The translations under genes were made by a program, and so were the position numbers. A stretch of DNA of 64,000 nucleotides from Candidatus Marinacidobacterium sp. (lineage in GTDB: Bacteria > Acidobacteriota > Vicinamibacteria > Marinacidobacterales > Marinacidobacteraceae): positions 320,001 to 384,000 of the forward strand of contig OZ242011.1 in NCBI GenBank assembly GCA_965204755.1, given 5' to 3'. Shown in pieces: positions 7,701-61,220 of this stretch. Position 1 is the first letter of the stretch, and each line of letters starts with the position of its first letter. The notes under the pieces were generated by a model that saw only the letters and a program-made list of their open reading frames with translations, ran no database searches and was not told the origin of the DNA.

Positions 7701-8057
7701 GACCGTCTCCTCCACCCCTTCGAGCCCGGCGACCGCCTCTTCGAGGCGCAGCAGCACGCCTTCCTCCACGGCGGGGGCGCTCGCGCCGGGGAACGCCACC
7801 CGGATGGAGATCGCCGAGGAGCCGGTGTCCGGGACCAACTCCTGGGGGATGCCGCCGAGGGTGAAGAAGCCGGCGAGCGAGATCCCGAAGAACAGGAGGT
7901 TCGCCGCCACCCGGTTCTCGACGAACCAGGCGACGACTCCCTTCGGGCGCCCTGTCGGACGGGCTGTCGGACGGGCTGTCGGACGGGCTGTCGGACGGGC
8001 TGTCGGGCGGCCCCCCGCCCGGCCCGGCGGGGCGGGAGCGTCCGGGCCCGGACTCAC
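4794..8057 (-). CDS. RND efflux permease (AcrB/AcrD/AcrF family)
   Basis: AWFVENRVAANLL start, LGIVVDDAIVVGENV, GIVVNDALVL, RFRAVVLTTLTT. GTG start overlaps the upstream TGA (GTGA at 8054-8057), giving 1087 aa. Confidence 0.95.
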   Translation of the reverse strand: MSPGPDAPAPPGRAGGRPTARPTARPTARPTARPTGRPKGVVAWFVENRVAANLLFFGISLAGFFTLGGIPQELVPDTGSSAISIRVAFPGASAPAVEEGVLLRLEEAVAGLEGVEETVGVAAEGFGTLTLQLASRADLRAVGDEVRERVGALAALPAEAETPVVSEVSPERLLLRLAVHGEADERSLREAARLVEEAVAAVPGVGAVRRESGRDYEISIETTEAALVRFGLGFDRLAEAIRAGSADIPGGRLRSGDREVRLRTAAGATTAADYERLPVIATPEGGVVTVGDLAAVTDGFADADREARFDGEPAVFLGATLAPGARLLDATNAVLDRVSGFPLPEGLSVTPWFNSWRLFESRMEVLVRNGLQGLALIFLLLFFTLSTRLAVWTAAGLPVSFFGAFLLMPGLSVTVNMISLFAFILTLGIVVDDAIVVGENVWRGLERGKRPPAEAAVRGARQVLAPVVFGVLTTMAAFTPLFGLPGVWGELIGTLPRIVIPVLAFSLLESAWILPRHLARGGLGVRPSPLLARIRGRAQGLFEATVRVAYLPALRFALDNRAAALSLFVLWLALAAGLARGGWVPVEPAPLFDRDTVVVRARLPPGSSAEATRRVMADLEAAVGRVREEVETGSGVRIHGSLAALAGRQLPSGPGGAMGGDAAREGASVGQLNWELRSAGERPEVSTRRIADRLRAEVRDLPGGAEVTVSTSLLGESADLSIRISGGDDDGDALVEATAEARSRLREYPGVVLVSDDLESGAPEFVARARPGGAGVGIGAAEFGRQVRQAFHGEEVQRIQRGPDEVPVVLRYAAAERGSLGRLASMRVRGRAGGGGAPLGEVAALAREEGYSVIRRVDGRRAATVDAGVDPAAASASAILAEVREALFPEWEERFPGLRFEVVGFTGEANDTIAALGRQTLLAVLLIYVLLAAPLSSWGQPFVILAAVPFGLAGAVFGHWVLGVSLGVTSFFGMAPLIGIVVNDALVLLHFMNGRIRRGDGVREAALRAGPRRFRAVVLTTLTTCAGLAPLLAERSVQAQFLVPMAASLAFGVAFATAVTLILVPVLFTLAADLRSPAGRGPAPRFR

Positions 8058-12284: not shown

Positions 12285-12453
12285 CGCCCGGCCGAGGGCC
12301 GCGGGGCGGGCGGGACCGGGAATACCGGGAATACCGGGAATACCGGGGACACCGGGATCACCCGGGGCACCGGGATCACCCTTCCGCCGGACTCCGCGAT
12401 ACCGCGGGCGGTTGGCGGAGTGCGGCAACCGCGGGCGGCGCGCCGCGCCGGTT

Positions 12454-17795: not shown

Positions 17796-19994
17796 TCACC
17801 GCAGGACGAGGAACAGGTTCGAGTAGTCGTCCGTCCAGCGGTAGGCCTCTCCCGGCTCGGCGGCCTCCCCGGAAAACGGCCGGGCGCGGGAGAGGACGCT
17901 CGGGTCGGTGACGAAGTCGGAAGACCAGGTGATGAGCGCCCAGGTGGTCTCGTAGCGGTAGGCCTCCGGGTCCGGCTCGGTCTCGGTGAGCAGGGAGATG
18001 GCGCCGAGCGCGAGCGCCTGCGCCCGGATTACCGGCGCCAGGTCCACATGGCGGTTGGAGATGTGGGCGGCGATCACGCCGCCGGGGGCCAGCCGCCGCC
18101 GGTAGAGGTCGAACGCCTCGGCGGTGAGCAGGTGGACCGGGACGGCGTCCCCGGTGAAGGCGTCGAGGACGAGGACATCCCAGGGCGCCTCCCCGGCGGC
18201 TTCCTCCCGCTCGAGGCTGAGCCGCCCGTCGCCGAGGACGACCTCGACTTCCCCGGCGGCGTCGTCCAGATAGGTGAAGTAGCGGCGGGCCACCCGTTCG
18301 ACCTGCGGGTCGAGTTCGTAGAAGCGGAACCGGTCGCCGCTCCGGGAGCGCGCCGCCAGCGAACCGGCGCCGAGCCCCAGGATCCCCACCGAGAGCGGCT
18401 GCCCGGCGCGCCGCTTCGGGTGGCGGTCGAGCGCCGTCTTCACCCCGGTGCCCTCGTAGTAGTAGAGCATCGGCTCCCGACGGCGCCCCGGCGCGAGGCG
18501 CTGCGACCCGTGGCCGATCCCGCCGTGCCAGAGGTCGCGCCGCCACTCCGGGGTGTCCGGCGAGTCTTCCATCACCCGCACCGCGCCGTAGAAGTTCCGG
18601 CTGGCGTGGAGCGGCCTCCGGTGCTCCAGCCAGGTTACGGCGAGCGCCAGCCCGGCCACCCCGGCGAGGGCGCCCCGGAGCGCGGCGCGGGGCAGGCTCC
18701 GGGAGGTCGAGGCCGCGCCGGCGAACGGGGCGGCGGCGCCGAGGACCAGGGCGAGCGGGTATTCCCAGGTGTTCGGGAACAGGAGCGGGCTCAGCAGCGA
18801 GGCGGAGAGCCCGCCCGCCGCGCCCCCGGCGGTGAGGGAGAGGTAGAAGCCGGTCAGCCGGGCCGGCGCCGGGCGCCGCCGGGCGATCTCGGCGTGGGCG
18901 GTCCAGCCGGCGGCGAACAGGAAGGCGAGGCCGGCGGCGGCGTGCGAGAGGAGCGGCCGGTCGAGCCCGGTGGTGATGTCCGCGAGCCAGACCAGCAGGC
19001 AGGCGGCGGCGAGCAGGAAGACCGCCGGGGTCAGCGCGCGCCGCGGGAAGCGGTCCGGCGCGCCGAAGGCGAGGACGAAGGTGACCAGGTACACCGCGAG
19101 CGGGGCGATCCAGAGGAACGGCGCGGCGGCCACATCCCGGGTCAGATGGGTGGTTACGGAGACCAGGGCGAAGGACGCCGCGGCCGCGAGGAGGGCGGGC
19201 GCGAGGCGGGCGGCGAGGCGGGGCCGGGCCGGGGGCGGCGGGTCGGCGGCGGGGTCGGCGGGCGGGGGCGGTGTTCCGGCGGCTGGGTCTGGGGCCGGGG
19301 GCGGCGAGTCGGCGGCGGCCGTCGGTGGCGTTCCGGCGGCCGGGGCGGCGGCCGGGGGCGGCGGGTCGGCGGCGCGGCGGGTGAGCAGCGCGCCGGCGCC
19401 GACGGTGGCCGCGCCGAGGAGGGCGAATCCGGCCGTCCACCAGCCGGCCTGGGCGGCGACGCCGAGGAACGGCTCCACCGCGACCGGGTAGAGCAGGAGG
19501 CCGAGGAGCGAACCGGTGTTCGAGACCGCGAAGAACCGGTAGGGCGAACCGGAGGTCCCCTTGCGTCCGCCGCCCCCGGCCAGCCAGGCGGAGACCAGCG
19601 GGGTGGTCGCCGCGCCGAGGACGAAGGGCAACCCCGGCCCGGCGAGCAGGGTGAGCAGGATCCGCGGCCCCGGCGCCTCGCCGCCCGCCGGCGCCCACCC
19701 GGCGGCCGGCAGCGGGGGGAGGAAGAACAGGAGGGCGGCGACGACGAGCGCGGCGTGGACGGCCACCTGGCGGCGCCGCGGGACGCGCGTGGCGAGCAGG
19801 TGCGCGTAGAGGTAGCCGCCGAGCAGGGCGGTCTGGAAGAAGAACAGCGCCACCGCCCAGACCATCGGCGCCCCGCCGTACCAGGGCAGCAGCGCCCGGG
19901 CGGCGAGCGGCTGCACGGAGAAGAGCAGGAACGCCCCGAGGAAGATCGCCCCCCCGGCCAGCCACCGCGCCCCCCGGAGGGGGTCGATCCTCAA
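17796..19994 (-). CDS. Fused membrane protein/spermidine synthase-like SAM-binding protein (5' end uncertain, open into the repeat array)
   Basis: FLGAFLLFSVQP...FFQTALLGGYLYAH, PYRFFAVSNTGS, LGLGAGSL, YELDPQV, GDGR, VLDAFTGDAVPVHLLT, HISNR, WTDDYSNL. The coordinate given is the last in-frame TTG before the conserved body. Confidence 0.88.
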   Translation of the reverse strand: MRIDPLRGARWLAGGAIFLGAFLLFSVQPLAARALLPWYGGAPMVWAVALFFFQTALLGGYLYAHLLATRVPRRRQVAVHAALVVAALLFFLPPLPAAGWAPAGGEAPGPRILLTLLAGPGLPFVLGAATTPLVSAWLAGGGGRKGTSGSPYRFFAVSNTGSLLGLLLYPVAVEPFLGVAAQAGWWTAGFALLGAATVGAGALLTRRAADPPPPAAAPAAGTPPTAAADSPPPAPDPAAGTPPPPADPAADPPPPARPRLAARLAPALLAAAASFALVSVTTHLTRDVAAAPFLWIAPLAVYLVTFVLAFGAPDRFPRRALTPAVFLLAAACLLVWLADITTGLDRPLLSHAAAGLAFLFAAGWTAHAEIARRRPAPARLTGFYLSLTAGGAAGGLSASLLSPLLFPNTWEYPLALVLGAAAPFAGAASTSRSLPRAALRGALAGVAGLALAVTWLEHRRPLHASRNFYGAVRVMEDSPDTPEWRRDLWHGGIGHGSQRLAPGRRREPMLYYYEGTGVKTALDRHPKRRAGQPLSVGILGLGAGSLAARSRSGDRFRFYELDPQVERVARRYFTYLDDAAGEVEVVLGDGRLSLEREEAAGEAPWDVLVLDAFTGDAVPVHLLTAEAFDLYRRRLAPGGVIAAHISNRHVDLAPVIRAQALALGAISLLTETEPDPEAYRYETTWALITWSSDFVTDPSVLSRARPFSGEAAEPGEAYRWTDDYSNLFLVLR

Positions 19995-21757
19995 AGCGCC
20001 GATCCGCAAGCGCCCGCTCCGAAGGGGGTCGATCCGCAAGGGGCTCGATCCGTGGGGTGTCGATCCACGAGGGGGTCGATCCGTAGGGGCTCGACCCACA
20101 TGGGGGTCGATCCAGAAGGGGGTCGATCCGTCGGGGGTCGATCCGCAATGGCTCGATCCGTCGGGGGTCGATCCGCAAGGGCTCGATCCGTCGGGGGTCG
20201 ATCCGCAAGGGCTCGATCCGTCGGGGGTCGATCCGTAGGGTTCTCGATCCGTAGGGGTTCGATCCACAAGGGGGTCGATCCAGAAGGGGCTCGATCCGAA
20301 GGGCTCTCGATCCGTAGGGGCTCGACCCAGAAGGGGGTCGATCCGAGGGGGCTCGATCCGAAGGGGGTCGATCCGAGGGGGCTCGATCCGAAGGGGCTCG
20401 ATCCGAAGGGGCTCGATCCGAAGGGGCTCGATCCGAAGGGGCTCGATCCGTAGGGGGCTCGATCCGTAGGGGGCTCGATCCGAAGGGGCTCGATCCGTAG
20501 GGGGCTCGATCCGAAGGGGGTCGATCCGCAGGGGTCGCGATCGGCAGGGTCTCGACCCGTCGAGGCTCGATCCGCAGGGGGTCGATCCGCAAGGGTCGCG
20601 ATCCGCAAGGGGCTCGATCCGCAGAGGTCTCGATCCGAAGGGGGTCGATCCGCAAGGGTCGCGGTCCACAAGGGGCTCGATCCGCGGGGGGTCGAACGGC
20701 AAGGGGCTCGATCCGCAGGGGGCTCGATCCGAAGGGGCTCGATCCGTCGGGGGTCGATCCGTCGAGGGTCGATCCGTCGAGGGTCGATCCGTAGGGTTCT
20801 CGATCCGTAGGGGCTCGATCCACGGGGGGCTCGATCCACAAGGGGGTCGATCCGTAGGGGCTCGATCCGTAGGGGCTCGATCCGTAGGGGCTCGATCCGT
20901 AGGGGCTCGATCCGTAGGGGCTCGATCCGTAGGGGTCTCGATCCGAAGGGGGTCGATCCGCATGGGTCGCGATCCGCAGGGTCTCGATCGGTAGGGTCTC
21001 GATCGGCAGGGTCTCGATCGGCAGGGTCTCGATCGGCAGGGTCTCGATCCGTGGAGGCTCGATCCGCAGGGGGTCGATCCGCATGGGTCGCGATCCGCAA
21101 GGGGCTCGATGTGTGGAGGCTCGATCCGCAGAGGTCTCGATCCGAAGAGTGTCGATCCGCAAGGGTCGCGGTCCACAAGGGGCTCGATCCGCGGGGAGTC
21201 GAACGGCAAGGGGCTCGATCCGCAGGGGGCTCGATCCGTAGAGGCTCGATCCGGAGGGGGTCGATCCGCCGAGTTTCGACCCGCAGGGGGCTCGATCCGT
21301 GGGGTGTCGATCCGAAGGGGGTCGATCCGAAGGGGGTCGATCCGAAGGGGGTCGATCCGCGGAGTCTCGACCAGCAAGGGGTTCGATCCGCCGGGGCTCG
21401 ATCCACTTGGGCCTCGATCCGCAGGGGTCTCGATCCGCAAGGGGGTCGATCCGCCGGGGTCTCGATCCGCAAGGGGCTCGATCCGCAAGGGGCTCGATCC
21501 GTGGGGGCTCGATCCGTCGGGGCTCGATCCACAGGGGCTCGATCCGCCGGGGCTCGATCCACGAGGGGGTCGATCCGAAAAGGCTCGATCCACGAGGGGG
21601 TCGATCCGCAGGGACTCGATCCGTAGGGGCTCGATCCAAGGGATCGATCCGACGAAACGCGACTCGTAAGGACTCGATCCGCAGGGGCTCGATCCGTAGG
21701 GGCTCGATCCAGAAGGGGGTCGATCCGAGGGGGCTCGATCGGCAGGGGGCCGATCCC
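19979..21757. repeat. Satellite-like tandem array of 14-16 bp units, consensus GGGG(C/G)TCGATCCG(T/A/C)A(G)
   Basis: Visible directly. About 115 units estimated from length divided by period, with an internal higher-order duplication (about 20563-20730 versus 21053-21238). Confidence 0.97.
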
Positions 21758-21867
21758 GCGCACCGCCGCTTCGGCGAACCGCCGCCGTCGGGCGGCGCTT
21801 TCCCGCAGGCCTTCCCGCGCGCCGCCGAGGGCGCTTCCGCTCATCCCTTCACGCTCCTCCCGCTGCG

Positions 21868-21874
21868 TAGAATA
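21868..21874. promoter_or_regulatory. Overlapping divergent -10 hexamers (TAGAAT on +, TATTCT on -)
   Basis: The only AT-rich patch between divergent ATGs at 21844 (-) and 21886 (+); GGAGGAG follows on the minus strand. Confidence 0.5.
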
Positions 21875-21885
21875 CGGGCCGCGCC

Positions 21886-22473
21886 ATGCCGAAACCCAAG
21901 TCCCGCCCCTCCCGTCCGCCCGCCGCTTCCGCCCCGCGTCCCGGCCCGAAACCGCCGGCGAAACGGCCCGCCGAGCCGACCGGCCGGGGGAGCGGCGCGC
22001 TGCTGCTCGTCGCCGGCCTCCTCGCCCTCGGCGGCGCGGTCTTCTTCATCTCCGCGTTCGAGGACGACACCACCGAGACCGCCTCCGCGATCTCGTACGA
22101 CACGCCGACAACGGAAGCGACCCAGGCGGCCGTCAAGACCTTCCCCTACTACGACAGCGCCGACGAAGCCAAGCCCTTCCCGGTGACGCTGCCCCCCTCG
22201 TCCTACAGCAACGAAACCCTGCAGCGCGCCTACGGCCTCGCCAAGGAGATCCCGGAAGTGCTCGCGCAACTCCCGTGTCTGTGCGGCTGCCACATGCAGG
22301 CGGAGGATCACGGCAGCCTGCTCGACTGCTATGTGGACGACCACGCCGCCACTTGAAGCACCTGTCTCCAGGAGGTCCTCCTGGCCAAGCAGATGCACGA
22401 CGACGGCGAAGAACCGGAAGCGATCCGCGAAGCGATCTACCGCCACGACTTCACGGACATCCCCCTCCGCTGA
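21886..22473 (+). CDS. PCYCGC-motif family membrane-anchored protein, predicted selenoprotein (Sec at TGA 22354-22356; 195 aa)
   Basis: TM anchor and LAQLPCLCGC...DHGSLLDCYVDDHAAT-TGA-STCLQEVLLAKQMHDDGEEPEAIREAI. Family-like sequence continues in frame after the TGA to a stop at 22471-22473. Confidence 0.82.
22368..22384 (+). promoter_or_regulatory. Bacterial SECIS-like hairpin
   Basis: CCAGGAG-GTC-CTCCTGG: perfect 7-bp stem, G-containing apical loop, starting 11 nt after the in-frame TGA. Confidence 0.75.
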
Positions 22474-22529: not shown

Positions 22530-22598
22530 TAACGACCGGCCGGCAACAACTGGCCGGCAACAACTGGCCGGCAACGACTGGCCGGTAACGACTGGCGG
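22530..22598. repeat. About five copies of a 14-bp tandem repeat (caacRactggccgg)
   Basis: Visible directly, at the left edge of the STAND island. Confidence 0.85.
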
Positions 22599-22745
22599 GC
22601 CGCCGCCCGCGGCGGCCGGGACGGGCAAGGCGGCCCCGCCCGATCGGGGCGGGATTCACGCCGACAGTCGAGCCGCCTCGAAGAGTCCTGCGGCCGACCG
22701 CGAGTGCCGGTCGTTATCGCAACTCGGCGCGTAGCGAAACCGGAC

Positions 22746-23609
22746 TCACCGCACCGACCGGAGTTCGGCGAGTTCCGCGAGGAGGTCCTCGATCGTCTCG
22801 TCGCCCGGCCATGCGCCTTTCAGCGCGTCCCGGTCGAAGTTCCTCGCTCGCTCGACGACTCCGGGAGGAATCGCCGCGGCGCCGGGAACATGGCCGCAAG
22901 GCGTTCGGTCGAACGCCTCATGCCGGTCGACCCGCGGCATCATGTGTCGAGCCAGCATCGCGCGCGGGCTTCCGTCGGCCCGGAAATGCACGACCCCGGT
23001 CACCGTGGCGTCCGTGCCCCACAGCGAACGCAACGCCTCTCGATCCACGGCCCCGGCGTCGAGTTGCCCGGGAAGGAAACTGCCGTCCTTCAGCCGGAGG
23101 AGGAACCGCCCGTCGTCGTGTTCGATGCCGTCGAGCCGACCGGTCACGATGAATCCCCTCGCCGGCGGGAGCATCCCGAGTCGCGCTTCGGCGCGGGCGG
23201 CCGCCGCTCGATCCCAGGCGAAGCCCCGCCCCCCGGCCTCGTCCGGCGTCAGCGCATACCCGGCGTCGGGATACCCGGCCGCCCGACCGAAGGCGAGCAT
23301 CGCTTCGAGTACGCCCCGGTCGTCGCACATACCGGGCGCCGTCTCCGATTCCCCGGTAACCGACCGAACGGCCTCCCCCACCAAGTCGAGCGCGGTGTCC
23401 TCGAGATCCACTCGTTCGCGCCCCTTCCGGAGCGGCGAGTACACGAACCGGTCGCGGGCGGTCTCGACCAGGCAGAACGCCCGAAAGCCGATCGAACCGG
23501 CGCCGAACCCGGTGATCGCGAAAGCCAGCGTCTCTTCGAGCCACTTCGGGCGCGCGCCGCGGGCGGTCGAGATCCCGGTGGCCCGGAGGCGCGTGACGCG
23601 TTCGGCCAA
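22746..23609 (-). CDS. Hypothetical protein, possible OB-fold C-terminal region; true 5' end probably near 23715
   Basis: Protein-like composition; ends WPGDETIEDLLAEL. The frame stays open and plausible upstream of the TTG (YTLRVDGLDARGGEIPKATLTKIVGALRR). Confidence 0.65.
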   Translation of the reverse strand: MAERVTRLRATGISTARGARPKWLEETLAFAITGFGAGSIGFRAFCLVETARDRFVYSPLRKGRERVDLEDTALDLVGEAVRSVTGESETAPGMCDDRGVLEAMLAFGRAAGYPDAGYALTPDEAGGRGFAWDRAAAARAEARLGMLPPARGFIVTGRLDGIEHDDGRFLLRLKDGSFLPGQLDAGAVDREALRSLWGTDATVTGVVHFRADGSPRAMLARHMMPRVDRHEAFDRTPCGHVPGAAAIPPGVVERARNFDRDALKGAWPGDETIEDLLAELAELRSVR

Positions 23610-23837
23610 GCGCCGCAGGGCGCCGACGATCTTCGTGAGCGTTGCCTTCGGTATCTCGCCGCCGCGCGCGTCGAGCCCATCGACCCGGAGGGTGTAACCG
23701 CGTGTCTTCGAGAACTCGCCGATCTCCTTCGGCGGGCGCCGCCCCCTCGCGCCGACCGTCCGTCTTGCCCCGTCCGCCGTCCCGAACCATAGCGGCGGAC
23801 GGAGACCAGGCGCGGGAGCGGCCCCGGGACGGGGCGG

Positions 23838-26800
23838 TCAGCCTGCCTCCGCCTCGGCGCGGCGGGCGGCCGGCGGTCTCACATCCAGCACGCGCACTTC
23901 GACGCGATCCCGTTCCTCGGGAGTCAGGTTCTCGACCAGTCGGCGGTGCAACTGCTCGCGCGTCTCCGGGCGGATCCCCTTCGGAGGGCGCGCGATAGGT
24001 CGTGAGGCGCCGGAAACTCCGAACCACAGGACGAGGTAGATGCCTCGCCCCATCGCTTCCGGCATGGCCGCGTACTTGGGAATCAATTGCTCCCGTACGG
24101 CGGTCCAGAGATCGCGATGCCACTGGCGCTTGATCTCGATCGGTATGGCGAACCCGTCGCAGCGCACCAGCAGGTCCGACCGCGCGCCCCCGGCGTGGCG
24201 CGCCTCCGGCGCGATCGGGCAAGCGCTTCCCAGCCGCCCGCGCAGCGCGCCGAGCAGCGCGTCGCGACACGATTCCTCGGGTTTCGGTTCGACCGCGCCG
24301 CCATGCGAGTCCTCGTTCCAGAACGGCCGCCACGCGTTCTCGTCACTTCCGGCGAACTCCGCGGCCAGGTCGTCGAGATGGTCGGCGACGAACGCGGAGA
24401 GGTCCGCCGCGTTCGCCGGACGCCCCCCGCGCAGGGCCTCGGCGACGCGATCGGCGGAAGCGTGGCGGAAGCCGACATCGGCCACGGTCCGCCGCCGGCG
24501 ATCCCGGGCCGCCTCCAAGCGAGGGCGCCACCGGGACAGCGCCCGATCGGCGATGAGGGATTCGAGCGCCCTTCCGGCGTCGGCTCCCGCGGAGCGGCCG
24601 AGTCGGCGAATGAAGTCCGCGATCCGTTCGGGGGCCCGGTCGGCCAACCCCAGGACCCTGGCTTCGTAAGGCTCCTCCGGCCGGAACATGGCGCCGAAAC
24701 GGGTGACCAGCAGGCGGAGGGTGACCGGGTCCATCCCCTCGTCCGGAACACGCGCATCCAAGTCGGGGCACAGGAACACGGCGGCCTCCCGCGCGGCTTC
24801 CTCGTCCCGCGTCAGGGTTTCGAAGCGGTCACGGTAGGCGTCGGGCGCCGCCGCGAGACCCGCAGCCACCCAGTGCGGCCGCTGGGCCACGGTCATGCTC
24901 TTCGATGCCGCCTTTCGCGCGACAACGCGAAGCAACCCGTCCCGGTCGGCGTGGGCGATCGCAGCCCAGAGGAGCAGGTCGAGAACCTGCAGTTGACCGC
25001 CCAGACCGCGCACGGGAAAGCCGCTGAGCAGCGGCAGGGCCGCCTGGCGCGCTACGCCGGCGTATTGCCGGTCTCCCACCAGCAGGTCGAGGTGTACCCG
25101 ACTCTCGCTGCCTTTCGCGATCTCCGCCTTCGCCCAACGGACGAGAACTCTCGCCGTGAGTTCGGGTCGCGAGCGAGCGAGTTCCCGATACCAGGGCGGC
25201 GGCTCCAGGCGGTTCGTCGGGGCGGTGAAATAGAAGGCGAGCGCCCGAAGCCACTGATCGTCGCCCAGCGTCTCCAGGCGCTCGGGACACTCCCTCTCCA
25301 TGACTTCGAGACCGGCGAGGAACGGCCACGCGAGCGAGTGGATCCCCGAACTCGCGTGGAAATCGAAGATCGCGTCCTCGTCCGGGACATCGTCGCGCCA
25401 CGGCGCGCGCGCCAGGGCGCCGACGACCACCCGGCGCAGGGCCGGATCGGAGAGGCGCCAGCCCCGGCCCGGCGCGCTCAGGTACTCCTCGAGCGATCCC
25501 AGGTATTCCCAGGCGAGGCGGCGGAGCAGCGCCGGCGAGGCCCGGTTCTCGCGGAACGCCTCGAGTTCGTCCTCGATCCGTCGAGCCATCGCCGAGTCCC
25601 TCCTCCGCCGCTCCTCGACGAATGGCCGTTCCTGCTCGCGCAAGTCGAGATACCCGGCGGGGAGATCGGTCTTGAGCAACCGGCGGAAACGGGCCGCCAT
25701 TCCGCGACGGAAAGCCCGGCCAATCAGTTCCTTCGCGCGGATCCTTTCCGCGCCGGCCCTTTCGACCGCCCGTTCCAGCAACCAGTCCGCGAGAAGCGGT
25801 CGAGCGATCGCCATCTCGACCGCCAGGGAGAGGCAGAAGCGACCGAAGCCTTCGGGCGGGCGGGCGATTCCCAGGGTCGCCGCCACTTCCCGAACCGCCG
25901 GGTCGAAGTCCTCGGTTTCCGGACACCGCTCCCATCCTTCGCGCCAGAGTTCGACCAGTCGCTGCGGACGCGCTTCCAGCCACTTTCGGACCCGGAGCAC
26001 CGCTCCGTCCGAGCCGACGGTCGAGCGCTGCCGGCTTTCCCGGCCGAGGCGAAGCCAATCGTAGATCTCGGTAGTGGAAGCGCCATCGCCATGCTCCTCC
26101 ATACCCTGCGTCACCAACTCCAGCGGGAGGTGGGCGAGGAACCGATTCTCGAGCGCGGCCCAATGGTCGGGCAAACGAACCCGCAGCGCGGCGAGCAGCC
26201 CCGGAAGGCGCCCGGAGTGTTCGGCCTTCGTCAGGCTCCGGAGCCAGAAGCCGTCGTACCTCCCGACCAGTTGTTCCGGCTGGTCGAGCAGGTAGTCCCA
26301 GACCTGCTCGGGGGTGATCTCCTCCGGATACATCCGTCCCAGCAGAGTCCCCAACAGTTCGCGATAGTGATCGCTAACGACGCCGCTTCGAATGTCTCCC
26401 GCCAGTCGCCGAAGTTCGGCGCGCCGTCTCTTTTCGTCGACGCAGTTGTGGATGAAGGCGTCGAGCGCGTAACGGGTGACTTCGTACCATCTCGTCCCGT
26501 CGCGGGCGACTTCCATGAGTCGGTCGGCAAACGCGGGCATCGGCCGGCCGAGGCTCAGGGCCCGCGCCGCGATTCCGGCGAGTACTTGCGCCGAACGGCC
26601 GCGATCGGCGGATTCGAGTTCGGCGCGGAGCGTCGGCGCCATTTCGGGAACCGCCAGCAGTCGGAGGAAGTCCGCGGGGAAGCGGTGCGCGCCGAGTTCC
26701 GGCGCCGTCGCGCGCATCTCGCGGAGCAACCGGCGCTTGTCGGTCGGGGTGAAGTCGTGGATGTCGCCGTAGGCCGCGATCCCCACCGGATCCCGAACGA

Positions 26801-27893
26801 GGAGATGGGGCCGCGCCTTCGCCGAATGCGCGGCCAACCAGGCAGCCAAGCCGCGGAGCGGCGACGGAATGGCCTCCTTGTCGGTGCTCAACAGCGCGAG
26901 GACGCGGCCCACCGGCAAACCCTCCTCGATCCGGCGAGCCAGGTACCGCGCACCCAGGAACTCCGCCACTTGCCGGTGCGCCGGGGAGAACCGCTCGCTT
27001 CCTCCGTCGGAAGTGAAGAGCCCCGCGCCGAGCGCCGCCCGAGCCGCGAAGTCGGACGACGGCGCCAGGGAGTCGATCGCCGGCCAATCGTCGGTCGCGT
27101 CCTTCGCGTACCGCGAGCACCCCTCGGCGCCGGCGAGCAGGAGCGCCGCGTCGAGTTCACCGGCCGCATCCACCAGCGCGGCGGCGGCGAACCGTTCCTG
27201 CCCGGAGTGGAGATGCTCGTCGTTGTATTCGCCGGTCAGGCGCTCACAGGCCGCTTCCAGGACTTCGCGATAACTGTCCTGCCAAGTCCCGCCGGAGGCG
27301 GCGAAAGCGCGGATGGAATTCAGGAGGGCGAGCGGGTTCCGCAGCCACGCATGGAACCCCCGCGCTCTCGCCGCCTTCAGGAAACCGTCCGCCTCGGTCG
27401 AAGCCGGCGTCGAGGCAGGCAGGGAGCGGACGAACCGCTCGATCTCGAAGTCCCGAAGCGGTTCGAGCCGCAACACCTTCACTTCTCCCCCGGGCGCGGC
27501 CTCTTCCAGCGGGGTGACATCCGTCCGCCCGAACCAGTCCGCGGCGCGGCACGAAAGCCGGAACCGGCGGCGGCCCAAGGCGCGAAGGCGCTGCACCACC
27601 CGGTCGAGCGGCTCGCGCGGATCGCCGGACGCCGCGCGCACCTCGTCGAGCCCGTCGATGAAGAGCGTTCCCTCGCCGACCGGCTCTTCGGCCGGCAACC
27701 GCAGGAACTCGCGCGCCGAAAAGTACCGGGCGGCGTCGCCGAGCGCCTCCGCTTCCCGCCGGAACTCGAAGGTCTTGCCCGAACCGGGGTCGCCGAGCAG
27801 GACGAAGGCGGCCTCGCTTCGGAACGCGGACAGCGGCCGCGCCCCGCGGGCGGCATTCGCCGCTTCGGTGACCGTCCGTACGATCGGCTTCAT
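23838..27893 (-). CDS. NACHT/STAND-type NTPase with helical central region and C-terminal PD-(D/E)xK nuclease-like domain (1351 aa)
   Basis: Walker A FVLLGDPGSGKT, Walker B LFIDGLDE, LSCRAADW, RNPLAL, HRQVAEFLGARYL; C-terminus E...RSDL...IPIEIK...QL...Y...GIYLVLWFG. ATGA overlap with the upstream gene. Confidence 0.85.
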   Translation of the reverse strand: MKPIVRTVTEAANAARGARPLSAFRSEAAFVLLGDPGSGKTFEFRREAEALGDAARYFSAREFLRLPAEEPVGEGTLFIDGLDEVRAASGDPREPLDRVVQRLRALGRRRFRLSCRAADWFGRTDVTPLEEAAPGGEVKVLRLEPLRDFEIERFVRSLPASTPASTEADGFLKAARARGFHAWLRNPLALLNSIRAFAASGGTWQDSYREVLEAACERLTGEYNDEHLHSGQERFAAAALVDAAGELDAALLLAGAEGCSRYAKDATDDWPAIDSLAPSSDFAARAALGAGLFTSDGGSERFSPAHRQVAEFLGARYLARRIEEGLPVGRVLALLSTDKEAIPSPLRGLAAWLAAHSAKARPHLLVRDPVGIAAYGDIHDFTPTDKRRLLREMRATAPELGAHRFPADFLRLLAVPEMAPTLRAELESADRGRSAQVLAGIAARALSLGRPMPAFADRLMEVARDGTRWYEVTRYALDAFIHNCVDEKRRRAELRRLAGDIRSGVVSDHYRELLGTLLGRMYPEEITPEQVWDYLLDQPEQLVGRYDGFWLRSLTKAEHSGRLPGLLAALRVRLPDHWAALENRFLAHLPLELVTQGMEEHGDGASTTEIYDWLRLGRESRQRSTVGSDGAVLRVRKWLEARPQRLVELWREGWERCPETEDFDPAVREVAATLGIARPPEGFGRFCLSLAVEMAIARPLLADWLLERAVERAGAERIRAKELIGRAFRRGMAARFRRLLKTDLPAGYLDLREQERPFVEERRRRDSAMARRIEDELEAFRENRASPALLRRLAWEYLGSLEEYLSAPGRGWRLSDPALRRVVVGALARAPWRDDVPDEDAIFDFHASSGIHSLAWPFLAGLEVMERECPERLETLGDDQWLRALAFYFTAPTNRLEPPPWYRELARSRPELTARVLVRWAKAEIAKGSESRVHLDLLVGDRQYAGVARQAALPLLSGFPVRGLGGQLQVLDLLLWAAIAHADRDGLLRVVARKAASKSMTVAQRPHWVAAGLAAAPDAYRDRFETLTRDEEAAREAAVFLCPDLDARVPDEGMDPVTLRLLVTRFGAMFRPEEPYEARVLGLADRAPERIADFIRRLGRSAGADAGRALESLIADRALSRWRPRLEAARDRRRRTVADVGFRHASADRVAEALRGGRPANAADLSAFVADHLDDLAAEFAGSDENAWRPFWNEDSHGGAVEPKPEESCRDALLGALRGRLGSACPIAPEARHAGGARSDLLVRCDGFAIPIEIKRQWHRDLWTAVREQLIPKYAAMPEAMGRGIYLVLWFGVSGASRPIARPPKGIRPETREQLHRRLVENLTPEERDRVEVRVLDVRPPAARRAEAEAG

Positions 27894-29161
27894 CGGTCCG
27901 GCTCCACCCAGTATCCCGCCGGAGCAGAGAGGAACTCCCCCAACGACATGCCGTCCGGGCCGACCAACACCTCGCTCGCGTGCGGGTAGCGCTCCCGGAA
28001 CGCCGCCAGACCTCGATGACGGGGCCCCCGCCTCCGGATGGTGACTTCGATGGCCGCGAGTTTGGGGCCCCGTTCGACGACGAAGTCCACTTCGAGCGCG
28101 CCTTCCCGCCAGTAGCGGACCCGCTCCCCGATCTCCCGGGTGTTCAGCAGGTGCGCCCCCACCGCGCTCGCCGCCAGCCGGCCCCAGAAGGTCCGATCGG
28201 CCCGCGCTTCCTCGAACGAACGCCCCGAGTCGAAAGTCATCAGGGAAGTGTCGAGGACATTGAGTTTGGGGCTCGAAGGCCGCATCGAGAACGGTCCGGC
28301 GTACTGTTCGAGCCCGGCGACGAGGCCGATGCGTTCGAGGAGGTCGAGATAACGGGCGAGCGTGGTCGTGTTCGACTTGTCCGCCAACTGGCCGCGCATC
28401 TTGTTGTAGGAGAGGATCTGCCCCGACAGGCCCGCGGAGAACTCGAAGAGCCGGGTCAGGAGCGCCGGCCGGTCGATCCGCGCCCTGGCGATCAGGTCGC
28501 GCTCGAGGCTCGCGTCCACCACCGATCGGCGGATGCAGGCGCGCCACGACCGGGGATTCGCCTCGTCCGGCCGGGCGCCCGGATAGCCGCCGAAGAACAG
28601 GAACCGGTCGAGGTCCACGCCGAAGGCCGCCTTCATCTCCCCGAAGGACCACGGGCCGGTCTCGATCATGTCCAACCGGCCCATGAGACTCCCGCCCGAG
28701 CCGTGCTGCATCATCAGCGGCGACGAACCCGAAATCACGACCCGCAACGGGCAGTCCCGAAAGCGGTCCGCGTCCCAGAGCCCTTTCACGGTTCGGGACC
28801 AGTGGGGCACGCCCTGGATTTCGTCGAGGGCGAGAACGAACCCCCGAGGATCGTTCTCCGCCTGTTCGCGCGCCCACTGCCAGATCTCCGCCAGCCAGTT
28901 CGCGTCCCGAACCACCAGCGGCGCGAACGGCGCACCCGGAAGGTCCGGCAGGTCCGGCGCCCGGTCGCGGTGGGCGGTCGACCCCATCCGGCCCAACGCG
29001 ACCAGGCCCGATGGCAACCCGCAACGCCCCAACGCCTGGCGAATGATGGTCGTCTTCCCCGTCCGGCGAGGCCCGAAGACCGCCTGGACCCGCTCCGGCG
29101 CCTCCACCAGCCGCTCCCGCAGGACCGCCACCTGCTCCCGCTCGAACTCCTGCCGCCGCAT
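27890..29161 (-). CDS. AAA_14 ATPase with DUF4143 C-terminal domain
   Basis: GPRRTGKTT, LDEIQ, SGSS, FFGGYPG, SSPKLNVLD, YWREGALEVDFVV, AIEV. Confidence 0.92.
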   Translation of the reverse strand: MRRQEFEREQVAVLRERLVEAPERVQAVFGPRRTGKTTIIRQALGRCGLPSGLVALGRMGSTAHRDRAPDLPDLPGAPFAPLVVRDANWLAEIWQWAREQAENDPRGFVLALDEIQGVPHWSRTVKGLWDADRFRDCPLRVVISGSSPLMMQHGSGGSLMGRLDMIETGPWSFGEMKAAFGVDLDRFLFFGGYPGARPDEANPRSWRACIRRSVVDASLERDLIARARIDRPALLTRLFEFSAGLSGQILSYNKMRGQLADKSNTTTLARYLDLLERIGLVAGLEQYAGPFSMRPSSPKLNVLDTSLMTFDSGRSFEEARADRTFWGRLAASAVGAHLLNTREIGERVRYWREGALEVDFVVERGPKLAAIEVTIRRRGPRHRGLAAFRERYPHASEVLVGPDGMSLGEFLSAPAGYWVEPDR

Positions 29162-37811: not shown

Positions 37812-37892
37812 GCGCCCGATGATATTCCGGCGAACGGCCCGCCCGGGCCTTCCGCGGCTCGAGACGCCGCCGGTCACGCCCGGTCGGCGGGC

Positions 37893-38245
37893 GAATTGTG
37901 TATAGCTCGCCAGCCGAATTGTGTATAGGCGGCGAGCGAATTGTGTATAGGCGGCGAGGAATTGTGTATAGCTCGCCGGGGAATTGTGTATAGCTCGCCG
38001 GGGCGGCGGCGCGCCCCGCGCCACCCGTCGGTTCCGTCGGCCGGGAGCCCCCGGAATGCGCCTCGGAGGGCTCGGAGGGGCGTATATGGCGCACGGAAGG
38101 GGCGCCGGAGGCCGCCCGCGGGCGGGGATGCATCGAGTCCGGCCGCTCCCGGATCCGGCCCGGAGGGGCCGAATTGTGTATAGCTGCCCGGAATTGTGTA
38201 TAGCTCCGGGGAATTGTGTATAGCTCCGGGGAATTGTGTATAGCT
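37893..38245. repeat. Two phased clusters of GAATTGTGTATAG (5 + 4 copies)
   Basis: Copies start at 37893, 37916, 37938, 37959, 37981 and at 38171, 38191, 38211, 38231. Confidence 0.97.
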
Positions 38246-38261: not shown

Positions 38262-38353
38262 GGAGGTTGCCCCGCTTTCGTGGACGGGTCGTAGTTCGGG
38301 TTCTGCTGTCGAGTGACACCGACTTTTACGCAGTTGGGGGACACGAACCCTTA
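38262..38353. mobile_element. Probable IS-end remnants, no transposase
   Basis: GAGGTTGCCCCGCTTTCGTGGAC resembles IS3-family terminal inverted repeats; GGGGGACACGAACCC-TTA resembles an IS5-type end; locally lower GC. Recognised from memory, not searched. Confidence 0.45.
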
Positions 38354-38894: not shown

Positions 38895-39014
38895 GGAAAC
38901 GAGTCCTCCCGGAAACGGGCGAAAGTAGCAGCAGCCCCCGTTTCCCCCCCGTTTCCCCCCTGTTTCCCTCCCGTTTCCGCCGGTTTCCTCCCGCCTCGTC
39001 CTCTTCGTCCCCCG

Positions 39015-40244
39015 TTGACCGGCCCGTTCACGCCCCCGACGGAGGCGGAAGCCGCCGAGGCGCGGGAGCACCTTCGCCGGGCGGAGGGCGCGGCGCTCGC
39101 CTCGCGGCGGATCCCGGAGGGCGCCGAAGGGCGCGAAGTGGATTCCGCGGCGGTCGTCGGGTTCGGCGTGATGGGGCGCGGGATCGCCCTCTCCTTCGCC
39201 GGGGCCGGCATCCCGGCGGCGGTGTTCGAGCCCTCCGACGCGGCCTGGGCCGCCGGCGTCCGCGCCGTGGAAGGGACGCTCGCCCGGGCGGCGGCGAAGG
39301 GGCGGATCGGGGAAGCGGACGCCGCGGCCCGCCGCCGGCGGATCCGGCGGGCGGAGCGGATGGAGGACCTCTCCGGGGCGGACTTCTTGGTGGAGGCGGT
39401 GTTCGAGGACTACGAGGCGAAGGCCCGCGTCTTCCGGGAGTTGGACCGGGTCGCCCCGCCGGGCGCGGTCCTCGCGACGAACACCTCGTCGCTCGATGTG
39501 GACCGGCTGGCCGCCGCGACGAAGCGGCCCGAAGCGGTGCTGGGAACCCACTTCTTCAGCCCGGCGCAGGTGATGCGGCTCCTCGAAGTGGTCATCGCCG
39601 ACCGGACTTCCGGGGAGACCGCCGCCACCGCGATGCGGCTCGGGCGCCGGCTGGGGAAGGCTCCGGTGCCGGTCGGCGTCGCCGACGGGTTCGTGGGCAA
39701 CCGGATGCTCTACGCCTACCGCCGCGAGGCGGACCGGCTGCTGCTCGAAGGCTCGCTCCCCGAAGAGGCGGACCGGGCGCTCCGCGAGTTCGGGTTCGCC
39801 ATGGGCCCCTACGAGGTCGCGGACCTGGCCGGGCTCGACATCGGCGCCGCGGTGCGGAAGCGGCAGTCGGAGGAAGCGCGGCGCCGGGGCCTCCCCGCCC
39901 CGCCGCCCGCCGTGGCCGACCGCCTGGTGGAGCAGGGCCGGCTGGGCCAGAAGACCGGGCGCGGCTTCTACCGCTACGCCCCCGGCGACCGGACGCCCCG
40001 CCCCGACCCGTCGGTCCGGGTGGTCATCGGCTCCTCCTCGACGACGGCGGGGTACCGGCGCCGTCGGGTCTCCGCGGAGGAGATCCGCCGGCGGTGCCTC
40101 GCCGCCCTGGTCCGCGAGGGGGAAGCGGTGCTGGAGGCGGGGATCGCCGAACGCCCCGGCGATGTGGATGTGATCTGGACGCTGGGCTACGGCTTCCCGG
40201 CGGACCGGGGCGGCCCGATGTACTGGGCCGGCATTCGGGATTGA
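39015..40244 (+). CDS. 3-hydroxyacyl-CoA dehydrogenase (no enoyl-CoA hydratase domain)
   Basis: GFGVMGRGIA, VEAVFED, LATNTSSL, GTHFFSPA, GFVGNRML, GQKTGRGFY, RGGPMYW. TTG start is inferred. Confidence 0.9.
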   Translation: MTGPFTPPTEAEAAEAREHLRRAEGAALASRRIPEGAEGREVDSAAVVGFGVMGRGIALSFAGAGIPAAVFEPSDAAWAAGVRAVEGTLARAAAKGRIGEADAAARRRRIRRAERMEDLSGADFLVEAVFEDYEAKARVFRELDRVAPPGAVLATNTSSLDVDRLAAATKRPEAVLGTHFFSPAQVMRLLEVVIADRTSGETAATAMRLGRRLGKAPVPVGVADGFVGNRMLYAYRREADRLLLEGSLPEEADRALREFGFAMGPYEVADLAGLDIGAAVRKRQSEEARRRGLPAPPPAVADRLVEQGRLGQKTGRGFYRYAPGDRTPRPDPSVRVVIGSSSTTAGYRRRRVSAEEIRRRCLAALVREGEAVLEAGIAERPGDVDVIWTLGYGFPADRGGPMYWAGIRD

Positions 40245-40326
40245 TCGGGCGGGACTGATGGGGCGGGATTGATCGGGCGGGACTGACCGGGACTGGAGAC
40301 AGGGGGCCGCCCGCCCGCCGGGGCCG

Positions 40327-56041: not shown

Positions 56042-57406
56042 TTACCTGGGCGCGGAGTCAGCGCCCGAATCGCCGGCGGGGGAATCCCCGTCGGAATTCC
56101 CGTCCCGCGGAACTTCGATGCCGGCCTCGCCCAGTTCCCACAGGACGGCGTCGGCGAACTGGTCGAGCGACGGCACCCGCCGGCCGTTGATGAAGATCGT
56201 CGGCGTCCCGGTAACGCCGAGCCGCATCGCTTCGGCGATGTCGGCGGCGACCGCGGCTTCGGCTTCCGGCGAGTCGAGGCAAACCCGGAACTCGTCGGCG
56301 TCGAGCCCGGCGACTTCCGCGATGCGGACCACATCGTCCGCGGTCGGCTCGACCGGCGGCGCCAGGTACACCCGGTCGTGGTATTCCCAGAAACGGTCCT
56401 GGCGCGCCGCGCAGGCCGCGCCGCGCGCGACCTCGCACGCTCCGGGGTGGAGCGCCCGGGGCAGGTGCGCCGCGCAGTCGTTGTCGAGGGGATAACTGCG
56501 GTAGTAGAGCGCGACATGCGGCCCGGTCGGCCCTTCGGCGTACTGGTCGAACGCCAGCGCGAATCGCCGGCACGACGGACAGAGGAAGTCCGAGAAGGTA
56601 ACGATCTCGACCGGCGCGCCGGCGGCGCCGCGGAACGGCACGCCGTCGAGCGGGATCTCCCGCACCGGCTGCTGCTGGAACGGCGGCACGCGCCACTGCG
56701 GCGGCGAAACGGGAGCGGTTGACGCCGGAAGGAGCCCGGCCGCCTTCACCGGCGCCTCCTCCGGCGCGGCGGAGCGGGCGGAGCGGACGCCGAGCAGGGA
56801 GAGGTCGGGGCCGGAGGACTCGGCCCGGACGCCCAGCCCCCGGTCGAAGAACAGCACCGCGGCGGCCACCACCGACGCCACCACCCAGAACGCCGGCGCG
56901 GCGCGGTCCCAGAGCGGCCTCACCGATGCCGCGGCGGGAAGCGGCGAGCGATCGCGGAACCCGGCGGGAAGGAGCCCGGCGAAGGCGGCGGCGTTCGCCG
57001 CGTAGGTCCAAAGGCAGAGCGAGCAGTACGCCCCGATGGAGAACGCCTGGACGCCGAACAGGAAGAGGTCGACCAGGAGCGCCAGGGCGACGAGCCGCAG
57101 CGCGAGCCGGCCCGGCCGCGAGCGGAGCGGCGCGCCGACCGCGAGCGAGAACCCGAGCAGGAGCGCGAGGGAGGCGAAGAACGCCAGCCCGACCGCGGCG
57201 AGCGGCACCCCGAACGCCGCCGACCAGTCGCTGGCCGCGACCGCCTCGCAGCCGGAATTCGAGGGGTCGCAGACCGCCGCGCCGAGCGCGCCGGCGTCGA
57301 GCCCGTGGTGCCGCAGCAGCAACACGAACGAAAGCGCGCCGCCGAAGAGCGCGGCGGCGAGCGCCCCGCCGAGGCGAAGGGTGTCTTTCGCCGGGCGGCC
57401 CGCCAT
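56042..57406 (-). CDS. Vitamin K epoxide reductase (VKOR)-DsbA fusion
   Basis: VKOR loop CDPSNSGC, SDWS, YCSLC; DsbA FSDFLCPSC and GVTGTPT. ATG at 57406 follows TAGAAT; the track start at 57499 is also possible. Confidence 0.88.
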   Translation of the reverse strand: MAGRPAKDTLRLGGALAAALFGGALSFVLLLRHHGLDAGALGAAVCDPSNSGCEAVAASDWSAAFGVPLAAVGLAFFASLALLLGFSLAVGAPLRSRPGRLALRLVALALLVDLFLFGVQAFSIGAYCSLCLWTYAANAAAFAGLLPAGFRDRSPLPAAASVRPLWDRAAPAFWVVASVVAAAVLFFDRGLGVRAESSGPDLSLLGVRSARSAAPEEAPVKAAGLLPASTAPVSPPQWRVPPFQQQPVREIPLDGVPFRGAAGAPVEIVTFSDFLCPSCRRFALAFDQYAEGPTGPHVALYYRSYPLDNDCAAHLPRALHPGACEVARGAACAARQDRFWEYHDRVYLAPPVEPTADDVVRIAEVAGLDADEFRVCLDSPEAEAAVAADIAEAMRLGVTGTPTIFINGRRVPSLDQFADAVLWELGEAGIEVPRDGNSDGDSPAGDSGADSAPR

Positions 57407-61114: not shown

Positions 61115-61220
61115 GGGGAAACCGACAGCGGAACCGGCAGGGAAACCGACAGGGAAACCGCCGGGGAAACCGGGAGGGAAACCGATGCGGAAACCGGTCG
61201 GGGAACCGATGGGGAAACCA
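61115..61220. repeat. About nine copies of a 12-bp tandem repeat (gggaaaccgNNN)
   Basis: Visible directly; intergenic. Confidence 0.85.

Follow-up and report, generated by a model that had tools for sequence, protein, structure and literature searches.

Satellite DNA is not, to our knowledge, expected on bacterial chromosomes, and the described systems closest to array A, the tandem array of TCGATCC-containing units that is the subject of this analysis, come from several different settings. The arrays of mycobacterial interspersed repetitive units (MIRU), which behave as variable-number tandem repeats (VNTR), hold a few to tens of copies. Plasmid partition and replication arrays have 5–20 sites beside a par or rep gene on their replicon, sopC consisting of 12 x 43 bp. 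The short tandemly repeated repetitive (STRR) sequences of cyanobacteria have 7-bp units without a variable part, and we know of no higher-order structure or gene association described for them. In Borgs, tandem repeats are reported to be pervasive, short in unit, lineage-specific and fast-evolving, and those within genes to create disordered protein regions (PMC9879509). A preprint on Serratia class 1 DISARM gives the methylation motifs of that system as ACACAG (N6-methyladenine, m6A) and MTCGAK (5-methylcytosine, 5mC) (bioRxiv 10.1101/2021.12.28.474362). Array A lies in a 64,000-nucleotide stretch, hereafter the window, of a Candidatus Marinacidobacterium genome of 3.98 Mb (assembly GCA_965204755.1, contig OZ242011.1, positions 320,001 to 384,000). 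Analysis of this stretch, of the whole genome and of related genomes reveals that two closed genomes of one genus carry satellite DNA in arrays of 1–3 kb that share one short site, and array A is a real, old, non-coding minisatellite of this family. In the literature covered, which does not extend to subscription journals, no description was found of such arrays or of repeats adjacent to hmaB, the methylase gene to which some of them are coupled.

Array A occupies window positions 19974–21756, with its motif on the + strand, and comprises about 114–116 head-to-tail units of 15/16 bp, as defined by Tandem Repeats Finder (TRF), a unit list and a per-position table. The unit has the form TCGATCC-G-NN(N)-GGGG-(C/G), and reported core variants are TCGATCC, TCGATCGG and TCGATATCC. 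TRF gives a period of 15, 116.1 copies, 77% matches, 4% indels and a score of 1532, and its period-31 row represents the same array. The first-pass annotation, made from the sequence letters alone, had described about 115 units with a near-invariant core, and this description is confirmed: 93 TCGATCC are found between 19960 and 21770, against approximately 0.3 expected in 1.8 kb under a first-order Markov model (about 652 per strand in the genome of 3,975,858 bp). The same interval holds 98 TCGATC, 109 TCGA and 105 GATC, in agreement with the overlapping palindromes TCGA and GATC that had been noted in the core; beyond these, the unit contains no palindrome. Decomposition into units, which the annotation had proposed, yields 114 units, of which 69 measure 15 bp and 43 measure 16 bp, as claimed in the annotated range of 14–16 bp, while the other two, of 13 and 30 bp, fall outside it. 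Among the 112 regular 15/16-bp units there are 61 distinct sequences. Spacing between successive TCGAYC cores is 15 bp in 60 of 102 cases and 16 bp in 31; the remaining 11 span two or three units in which a core is degenerate or, in one case, correspond to a 13-bp unit.

Variation within the unit is strongly position-specific. Across the 112 units, C2 and G3 are invariant (112/112), and A4, T5 and C6 are conserved at 86–100% in either length class, with the minimum at position 5 of the 16-bp units (37/43). The G-run is 80–100% conserved, and the base preceding the next core is C or G. Positions 9–11, which correspond to the two or three bases following TCGATCCG, are hypervariable, with an entropy of 0.4–1.7 bits. 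Above the level of single units, homogeneous runs of sub-variants are present as previously described, for example 6 x TCGATCCGTAGGGGC at 20847–20936, and the proposed higher-order duplication of about 170 bp is equally clear. Its first copy (20563..20730, + strand) consists of 11 units and includes the rare variants GTCGCGGTCCACA and GTCGAACGGCA; the second (21053..21238, + strand) carries one additional 15-bp unit, and the two are identical in 164 of 168 columns, the highest-scoring of 3307 unit-registered comparisons (140, against a median of 83). Degenerate units stand at the left end (19984..20028, + strand), where sequence, coordinates and a frame check place the TGA stop of an array-spanning open reading frame (ORF) discussed below. 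The unit list also contains one interruption (21631..21673, + strand), a 13-bp unit followed by 30 bp without a regular core.

That this tract is an assembly artefact, or a collapsed or expanded repeat, is barely credible. Short-period arrays are difficult to assemble, and none of the sequencing runs X1, X3, X7 and X11 provides a single contig spanning array A; contigs of these runs, which come from four studies, nevertheless enter the array from both flanks, and their interior pieces match it with 0–3% differences (0–5 differences), 16-bp units included. The genome assembly is one contig without N, and equivalent arrays are present in the independently assembled closed genome of a sister species. 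The mis-assembly that the first-pass annotation had envisaged is thus not borne out by the contigs of the four studies. In all of them the array stands at the same locus, and length differences are whole units, of 15 and 60 bp: 15 bp are missing at 21228 (X11) and at 21306 (X7, X11), and 60 bp are skipped between 20122 and 20183 (X11). In strains whose flanks diverge by about 3%, unit variants follow one another in the same order and the differences are indels of whole units, and near-identical strains occur in runs labelled as sponge and as marine metagenomes. The arrays expand and contract by whole units through slippage or unequal exchange and persist at their locus among strains.

Array A had been presented as a single array; it is real, and a whole-genome tandem-repeat scan now places it in a genome-wide family that the first description missed. 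Five further arrays (B–F) share the GGNTCGATCCG core, at 30–33 bp or irregular spacing. Array B (genome positions 2587848–2589887) has a 121-bp higher-order unit made of four [AAGGGG(C/G)TCGATCCG + ~16 bp] segments, and array C (2780725–2782400) contains the homologous 121-bp unit in inverted form, with a hairpin-forming pair; inverted unit pairs occur in array C only. Array D (2161900–2163150) carries the variants GGGTGTCGATCCGCG and AAGTGTTCGATCCGCG, array E (1840214–1840521) is built as 33 bp x 9.4, array F lies at 755750–756000, and a small TCGATCC cluster is found at 245470–245990. Satellite DNA of this type amounts to about 7 kb in the genome. Outside the arrays, 54 single copies of GGNTCGATCCG resemble chance matches in coding sequence. 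For this reason, and since the unit is not palindromic beyond TCGA/GATC, classification as repetitive extragenic palindromic (REP) elements or bacterial interspersed mosaic elements (BIME) was rejected. A common neighbouring gene was also rejected because the flanking genes differ from array to array: membrane protein/PCYCGC, DUF4143 ATPase, SelB, ARPP-1, TP_methylase/epimerase and DrmD. As a separate observation, both array B and array C are bounded on the left by the motif TGTCC(C)ACTTTT (genome 2587790–2587815 and 2780670–2780715; loci L086 and L087), upstream of minus-strand genes that start there, and a similar GACACCGACTTTT is found at window 38297–38309.

The search for the unit in relatives, also proposed at the outset, extended the family to three further genomes. 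Among 55 genomes of the taxonomic family, matches to a triple-core pattern number 179+38 in the genome of the window and 88+465 in the closed 4.48-Mb genome of the sister species (G001), with hardly any elsewhere; the reversed pattern, used as a control, gave 0 matches in the 55 genomes. At least 12 array loci of 0.6–3.0 kb each, about 20 kb together, are present in the sister species, a floor, since they derive from one BLAST query and TRF on the fetched loci. The units there are mostly of 19 bp, (A/G)AGGTGGTCGATCCG-NNN, all of them reading GTCGAT, and others are of 15/16 bp (TATCGGCTCGATCCG) or 29–32 bp. Beyond this genus, a contig end in a genome of another genus (G007) begins with a 29-bp array holding GGGTTCGATCCGCG, and in a genome of a third genus (G041) GGATCGAT occurs in an array of 32 bp x 17.8. 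Closed genomes belonging to other genera (at least 8) show 0–3 triple-core matches and no such arrays. Scans of public collections, which possibly exclude the window's own genome, revealed no large array: the triple GGGGNTCGATCC pattern matched 29 loci of unrelated taxa in genome_contigs with 1–3 matches each, the triple TCGATCCG pattern matched 62 loci in viral_contigs (IMG/VR) with at most 2, and in the JGI metagenome_contigs at least 121 loci had at most 4, with no large array among the matches listed.

Across 23 array segments from the four genomes and three genera, the shared part is GG(N)TCGATCC(G), while periods (15, 16, 19 and 29–33 bp) and flanks differ. Retention of the core across species while the rest of the unit drifts suggests the signature of a protein-recognition sequence, and the position-specific variation in array A and the same core with different flanks in the 23 segments support a site-like constraint. 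The interpretation favoured here, tentatively and at slightly less than an even chance, is that array A is a lineage-specific, non-coding satellite copy that would act as DNA, namely as closely packed sites for a reader with sequence specificity, a defence methylase being the best candidate. The units, whose length varies between arrays from 15 to 33 bp, each carry one invariant site, approximately GGNTCGATCCG, beside a short hypervariable stretch, and would serve as the recognition site for a sequence-specific protein; the whole array would form a block of about 100 sites that could function as a local sink, mark or sensor. Much less certainly, the reader may be an N6-adenine methylase of the HmaB/DUF1156 type or a DISARM-type methylase, since the core holds TCGA and GATC and the sister species couples its arrays to hmaB paralogs. 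Array A itself is a "solo" copy; the start of a conserved membrane-protein gene stands on one side of it and a divergent PCYCGC gene on the other, next to a NACHT-type island. The earlier suggestion of a protein-binding or methylation-site array is thus supported in part, with regard to the position-specific core, found again in 23 segments; the support for methylation is circumstantial and comes from the 6 of 12 sister-species arrays that stand upstream of hmaB.

The main rival is that of a functionless satellite, neutral or selfish, in which slippage or unequal crossing-over multiplied a seed sequence and recombination among arrays disseminated it. The arrays would then have their core in common through descent and concerted evolution, and the defence genes nearby would mark common recombination hot spots. 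This explanation, unlikely as a whole though worth serious consideration, accounts for array dynamics: higher-order structure and whole-unit indels are expected from it, the arrays of the window's genome have no common neighbouring gene, and the arrays are restricted to few lineages, being absent from the closed genomes of other genera mentioned above. The genome is, moreover, rich in tandem repeats, with 1266 TRF loci covering 74 kb, of which 351 have periods that are not multiples of 3. The distribution of arrays between the two species points in the same direction, as they lie at indels and synteny breaks. By blastn, flanks of sister-species arrays map to array-free positions in the window's genome. 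A 1.9-kb array at 209 kb falls between 1487439 and 1487674, the 4.19-Mb block between 785989 and 786077 (an 88-bp intergenic gap), and the 512-kb block between 2205584 and 2205064, while arrays at 869 kb and 1596 kb join regions that are far apart in the window's genome. Because these flanks map to array-free positions, the two species differ by the gain, loss or relocation of arrays as blocks, some of which coincide with points of rearrangement; the arrays occupy intergenic sequence that borders variable or defence regions. At the locus orthologous to that of array A, too, the sister species has no such array. A purely neutral model nevertheless predicts neither the position-specific variation, nor the retention of an 8–11 bp core at about 71% flanking-protein identity while the remaining unit differs, nor the placement of all six hmaB-adjacent arrays at the 5' end of the gene.

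The link to defence methylases comes from the sister species, where six arrays abut a multicopy 2.9-kb gene (blastn). The homolog of this gene in the genome of the window (241962–244979, 1006 aa) matches DUF1156 (2.8e-31), PADLOC HmaB (1463 bits) and, weakly, the D12 adenine-methylase family. Arrays are physically coupled to hmaB in this species. Its genome carries hmaB at 13 highly identical loci, 7 of them unbroken and 6 split, and at six of the 13 an array stands 85–290 bp upstream of the 5' end of the match, which accounts for 6 of the 12 array loci found; at a seventh, an array is 3 kb away. The other arrays comprise one beside an hmaB fragment, one beside a Type I HsdR gene and three without a PADLOC-positive neighbour. 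The inserted block at 4.19 Mb consists of hmaB and an array, with nothing else, and at least two of the six hmaB-linked arrays look like two-part cassettes. Membership of the HmaA-HmaB-HmaC (Hma) system was rejected for the 4.19-Mb locus, to which the check was confined, as hmaB and the array are its only components. In the genome of the window, array B adjoins a PDC-S01 ATPase, and after array F come, in this order, a conserved ~50-bp element, DrmD (650 bits) and a gene for a DrmMI/type-IIG-like methylase (1333 and 396 bits). The defence island by array F (L134, genome 732500–752400; L090) was also seen to contain, together with DrmD and the DrmMI/type-IIG methylase-nuclease, a short pAgo-like ORF, an RmrA-like HTH-peptidase and a DruE-like helicase, and PDC-M02B lies on the opposite side of the array.

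Several observations weigh against a methylase-read site tract. Arrays A, C, D and E adjoin no methylase, and three hmaB loci in the genome of the window (two of them split) have no large array upstream. At 7 hmaB loci examined in five other genera the TCGATCC array is absent, so the methylase needs no array. With respect to hmaB, the units point in one direction in 4 cases and in the opposite direction in 2. The motif MTCGAK fits only 64 of 99 units of array A (those with CTCGAT) and none of the 19-bp units of the sister species, and was rejected as a conserved feature there, because TCGAT is preceded by G in all units of the 19-bp arrays. More generally, the arrays lie in recombination-prone regions, and their co-location with defence genes could be a by-product, just as the core could be kept by common descent with concerted evolution or by exchange between co-resident species. 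Finally, the HmaB of Halomonas, an uncharacterised putative methylase, showed no methylase effect of the restriction-modification type (PMC11232893).

Two further features of the hmaB loci deserve mention on their own. Canonical TCGATCC makes up 40–60% of the hmaB-adjacent arrays (L104, L106, L109, L110 and L112), which include many TCGATATC(G/C) and TCGATCGG units, and 80–98% of the units in arrays without hmaB (L103, L105, L111 and L113), which speaks against a simple rule. In six hmaB paralogs, a perfect dinucleotide tract, (CT) or (AG) x 12–40, lies exactly at the point where tblastn splits the match into two frames. These tracts (2134976–2135000 and 2149853–2149898 in the window's genome; L125 3052–3129, L126 6013–6044, L127 5351–5405 and L128 5327–5405 in the sister species) look like a predicted case of slipped-strand phase variation of a defence methylase.

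A wider version of the methylase proposal includes other multi-locus array families of the same genome, which carry ACACAG, ACACAT and ACACAA cores. TCGATCC-core and ACACA(G/T/A)-core arrays might together represent a novel type of bacterial chromosomal element, kilobase blocks of recognition sites for Hma/DISARM-like methylases that travel as cassettes with orphan methylases and act epigenetically; this extension is quite unlikely. Such blocks could provide a self-mark, a sink that retains the defence machinery or turns it off, or a methylation sensor controlling adjacent genes. The parallel with the DISARM motifs is suggestive and is best regarded as a lead. If the reader were a defence methylase, the arrays would represent a new chromosomal organisation of methylation-based immunity and would offer a handle on the function of HmaB/DUF1156. 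Even if functionless, they mark rearrangement breakpoints and insertion sites of defence genes and are usable as strain markers.

A structural role for the chromosome, either as a G-quadruplex tract or as a nucleoid-organising or partition-type binding array at several chromosomal positions, is highly improbable. The strand asymmetry of G-runs reported earlier is indeed present: the + strand of array A has 80 runs of at least G4 against 6 runs of at least C3, at a spacing of 15–16 nt, and arrays are distributed around the chromosome, six in the genome of the window and at least 12 in the sister species, many of 1.1–3.0 kb. Hypothetical quadruplex loops would nevertheless measure 11–12 nt, and the G4 runs are not conserved, as units of the sister species carry GGTGG or ATCGG in their place, GGTGG in the main unit; the G-quadruplex tract proposed in the first-pass annotation is therefore not borne out as a selected feature. 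The array orientations in the window's genome (+,-,+,+,+,-) obey no replichore rule and show no consistent relation to dnaA, at 1.824 Mb, or to GC skew, whose cumulative minimum is broad. Array positions are not conserved between species, either. The partition-like site suggested before fares no better: each chromosome has 6–12 arrays, the flanking ORFs scanned for arrays A–F and for those of the sister species include nothing par- or rep-like, and an iteron or partition-site array was rejected. Regularly spaced direct repeats are also a property of CRISPR, and arrays B and C resemble 15-bp repeats with 15-bp "spacers". These "spacers" recur within the 121-bp higher-order unit, the conserved part (8–15 bp) is too short, and array A has no spacers, so the exclusion of CRISPR in the annotation holds. 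No cas genes were found among the flanking ORFs scanned with Pfam and PADLOC, no genome-wide cas search having been made.

Locally, array A fills the spacer between two divergent genes. On its left, the 5' end of a gene for a multi-pass membrane protein (17796..19994, - strand; no Pfam match) abuts the array; the C-terminal half of this protein presumably resembles spermidine-synthase-like methyltransferases. Its ortholog is present in 28/28 genomes of the family, with alignments beginning at query residues 1–7, and its open frame measures 673–832 aa in 26 other family genomes, compared with 1350 in the window's genome and 1093 in the sister species. Because the alignments start at these residues and the frames of the other genomes are shorter, the membrane protein normally begins at the edge of array A, and a candidate TTG start at 19994–19992 fits this position. 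On the right, at a distance of 130 bp, lies a divergent gene for a PCYCGC-motif protein (21886..22356, + strand; Pfam PF13798 at 24.3 bits, below the cut-off of 25); the sister species conserves the TAGAAT that precedes the ATG of this gene by 13 nt. Further to the right, a 363-aa ORF without an assigned family (22749–23837) stands beside a gene for a STAND/NACHT-like NTPase of 1728 aa with the P-loop GDPGSGKT (23841..29024, - strand), which has no Pfam or PADLOC match; its Atlas feature matches of 0.99 to NACHT/DUF8371 clusters serve as a lead only. The statement that no nearby gene explains the array thus stands for function at the locus, and has to be amended in that the array abuts a membrane-protein start, is spanned by an ORF and borders a NACHT-type island.

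In the sister species, the orthologs of the membrane-protein and PCYCGC genes are likewise divergent neighbours, about 430 bp apart, and the flanking protein shows about 71% amino acid identity between the two species. The orthologous spacer of about 430 bp contains no TCGATCC array and has other repeats (15 bp x 4.7 and 24 bp x 8.3), and the position of the NTPase is occupied by a gene that, judged by eye only, resembles phage head-morphogenesis (Mu F-like) genes. Because the spacer lacks the TCGATCC array and a different gene follows beyond PCYCGC, the locus of array A separates conserved genes from a variable island, and the array is specific to the species of the window. The 15- and 24-bp repeats of the sister species (L085 7410–7817; G001:C1:3537409–3537816) were observed to share the reading frame of the membrane protein, counted from a conserved ATG-AGC. 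They would add a Gly/Arg-rich N-terminal extension of 130 aa (VAGGVGRR-type), which may be a repeat-made disordered region.

Array A as a whole is spanned by a 617-aa ORF (19994..21844, - strand), with an ATG at 21844 preceded by GGAGG 10 nt upstream and a TGA stop (19993–19991, - strand) that overlaps the candidate TTG start of the membrane-protein gene as TTGA. All three minus-strand frames are open through the array, and the peptides of the 617-aa ORF rotate through GSSPx, DRAPx and RIEPL, because one third of the units measure 16 bp. A coding tandem repeat was rejected on the basis of this mixture of 15- and 16-bp units and the resulting rotation among three pentapeptides. In Pfam, the ORF has only a sub-threshold match to Extensin_1 (98 bits, cut-off 105), and among 8000 scored candidates (339–1080 residues in length) no homolog reached E <= 0.001, the ORF itself not being returned. 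It is probably not a selected coding sequence.

The same arrangement allows for an alternative in which the array acts as RNA. Were transcription of the membrane-protein gene to begin in the divergent promoter region near 21850, the message would include a C-rich, unstructured leader of 1.85 kb with about 110 CGGAUCGA repeats, which could load Rho or titrate an RNA-binding protein, or the 617-aa ORF could serve as a coupling or phase-variable leader peptide. Consistent with a leader, the minus-strand RNA is far less structured than its shuffles (z = +4.19, with 100/100 shuffles folding at least as well; +0.69 for the + strand), the ORF has its ATG with the upstream GGAGG and its TTGA overlap with the downstream TTG, and the repeats of the sister species run in frame into the membrane protein. 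The rotating frame, however, leaves no conserved peptide, in the 26 other genomes no extension precedes the protein, whose start lies at the array-proximal end, and other arrays of the family occur in both orientations to their neighbours and between convergent or tandem genes. Overall, an RNA leader is improbable. Scans for sigma-70 promoters and for intrinsic terminators in 19600–22100 gave 0 and 0 sites. A structured RNA family was rejected as well, given that the window contains no Rfam family and that neither strand of array A is more stable than its shuffles.

Other repeats accompany the TCGATCC family in this genome. A second motif family, GAATTGTGTATAG(C/G), forms two arrays in the window (37884–38003 and 38171–38245, + strand; 20–22 bp period, 5.4 and 3.8 copies), and about 10 loci of it with 4–10 copies each are found genome-wide (755990–756400, 1208234, 1659915, 2895469, 2895738, 2971019, 3119121, 3119469 and 3494440); its complement contains ACACAA. 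A third family, AAAGACACAGGCTCC / GACACATGC, occurs at genome 245520–245990, 587946 and 3356797, and also beside TCGATCC arrays in the sister species (L105, L106 and L124). The window also contains, at 38265–38289 (+ strand), a conserved ~50-bp element, GAGGTTGCCCCGCTTTCGTGGACGGGT(T/C)G(T/C)AGTT, after which the GACACCGACTTTT motif mentioned above is found. The element has 8 copies in the genome, the others being at 245995, 422247, 755719, 1207895, 1902657, 2895833 and 2970736. Six of the eight directly follow arrays of three motif families, TCGATCC array F included, and the genes downstream are mixed (DrmD, 3-hydroxyacyl-CoA dehydrogenase, DUF4143 ATPase and an HTH-M78 regulator); the element could be a promoter or leader module. 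Short clean tandem repeats of 9–14 bp units x 4–9 were also seen in the window at 7952–8010, 12315–12380, 22538–22600, 38935–38993, 40236–40291, 60066–60158 and 61115–61219. On a larger scale, a 108-kb stretch (genome 850503–958533) contains about 276 copies of a 387-bp repeat, and there are further stretches of 25 kb (513168–538331) and 18 kb (3527219–3546639), which are presumably giant genes for repetitive surface proteins. An unrelated observation is a tRNA-Arg(CCG) predicted by ARAGORN at window 57195–57292, which at 98 nt is unusually long for a bacterial tRNA-Arg.

Compared with known systems, array A has the features of a minisatellite or VNTR: head-to-tail units in the 10–100 bp range, strain differences of whole units and a sequence that appears non-coding. 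It is like mycobacterial MIRU-VNTR in these head-to-tail intergenic units, in the whole-unit differences between strains and in the occurrence of several loci per genome, and unlike them in having about 115 copies per array over 1–3 kb, a conserved 8–11 bp core in otherwise diverged units, periods that vary between arrays and, in the sister species, a coupling to methylase genes. With the cyanobacterial STRR heptamer arrays it shares lineage-specific short tandem repeats at many intergenic loci. The likeness to sopC, parC and iterons lies in tandem units that would each contain one protein-binding site, and the difference in about 100 sites per array, many arrays per chromosome and flanking ORFs that, as far as scanned, include no par or rep gene. 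Eukaryotic centromeric satellites with a CENP-B box, which combine a conserved protein box in variable monomers with higher-order repeats, concerted evolution and several arrays, offer an analogy only, given the different domain of life, scale and function. The in-frame 15/24-bp repeats at the orthologous gene start of the sister species recall Borg repeats; the latter are reported to be of independent origin and to have unrelated units, whereas the independent arrays described here share one core, and the units of array A are not multiples of 3. The motifs of Serratia class 1 DISARM are dispersed and not arrayed as here, and GTCGAT units do not fit MTCGAK; the likeness consists in a core that contains TCGA, in CTCGAT units that do fit MTCGAK, in the ACACAG-type cores of other array families and in the position of array F ahead of a DrmD and DrmMI-like operon.

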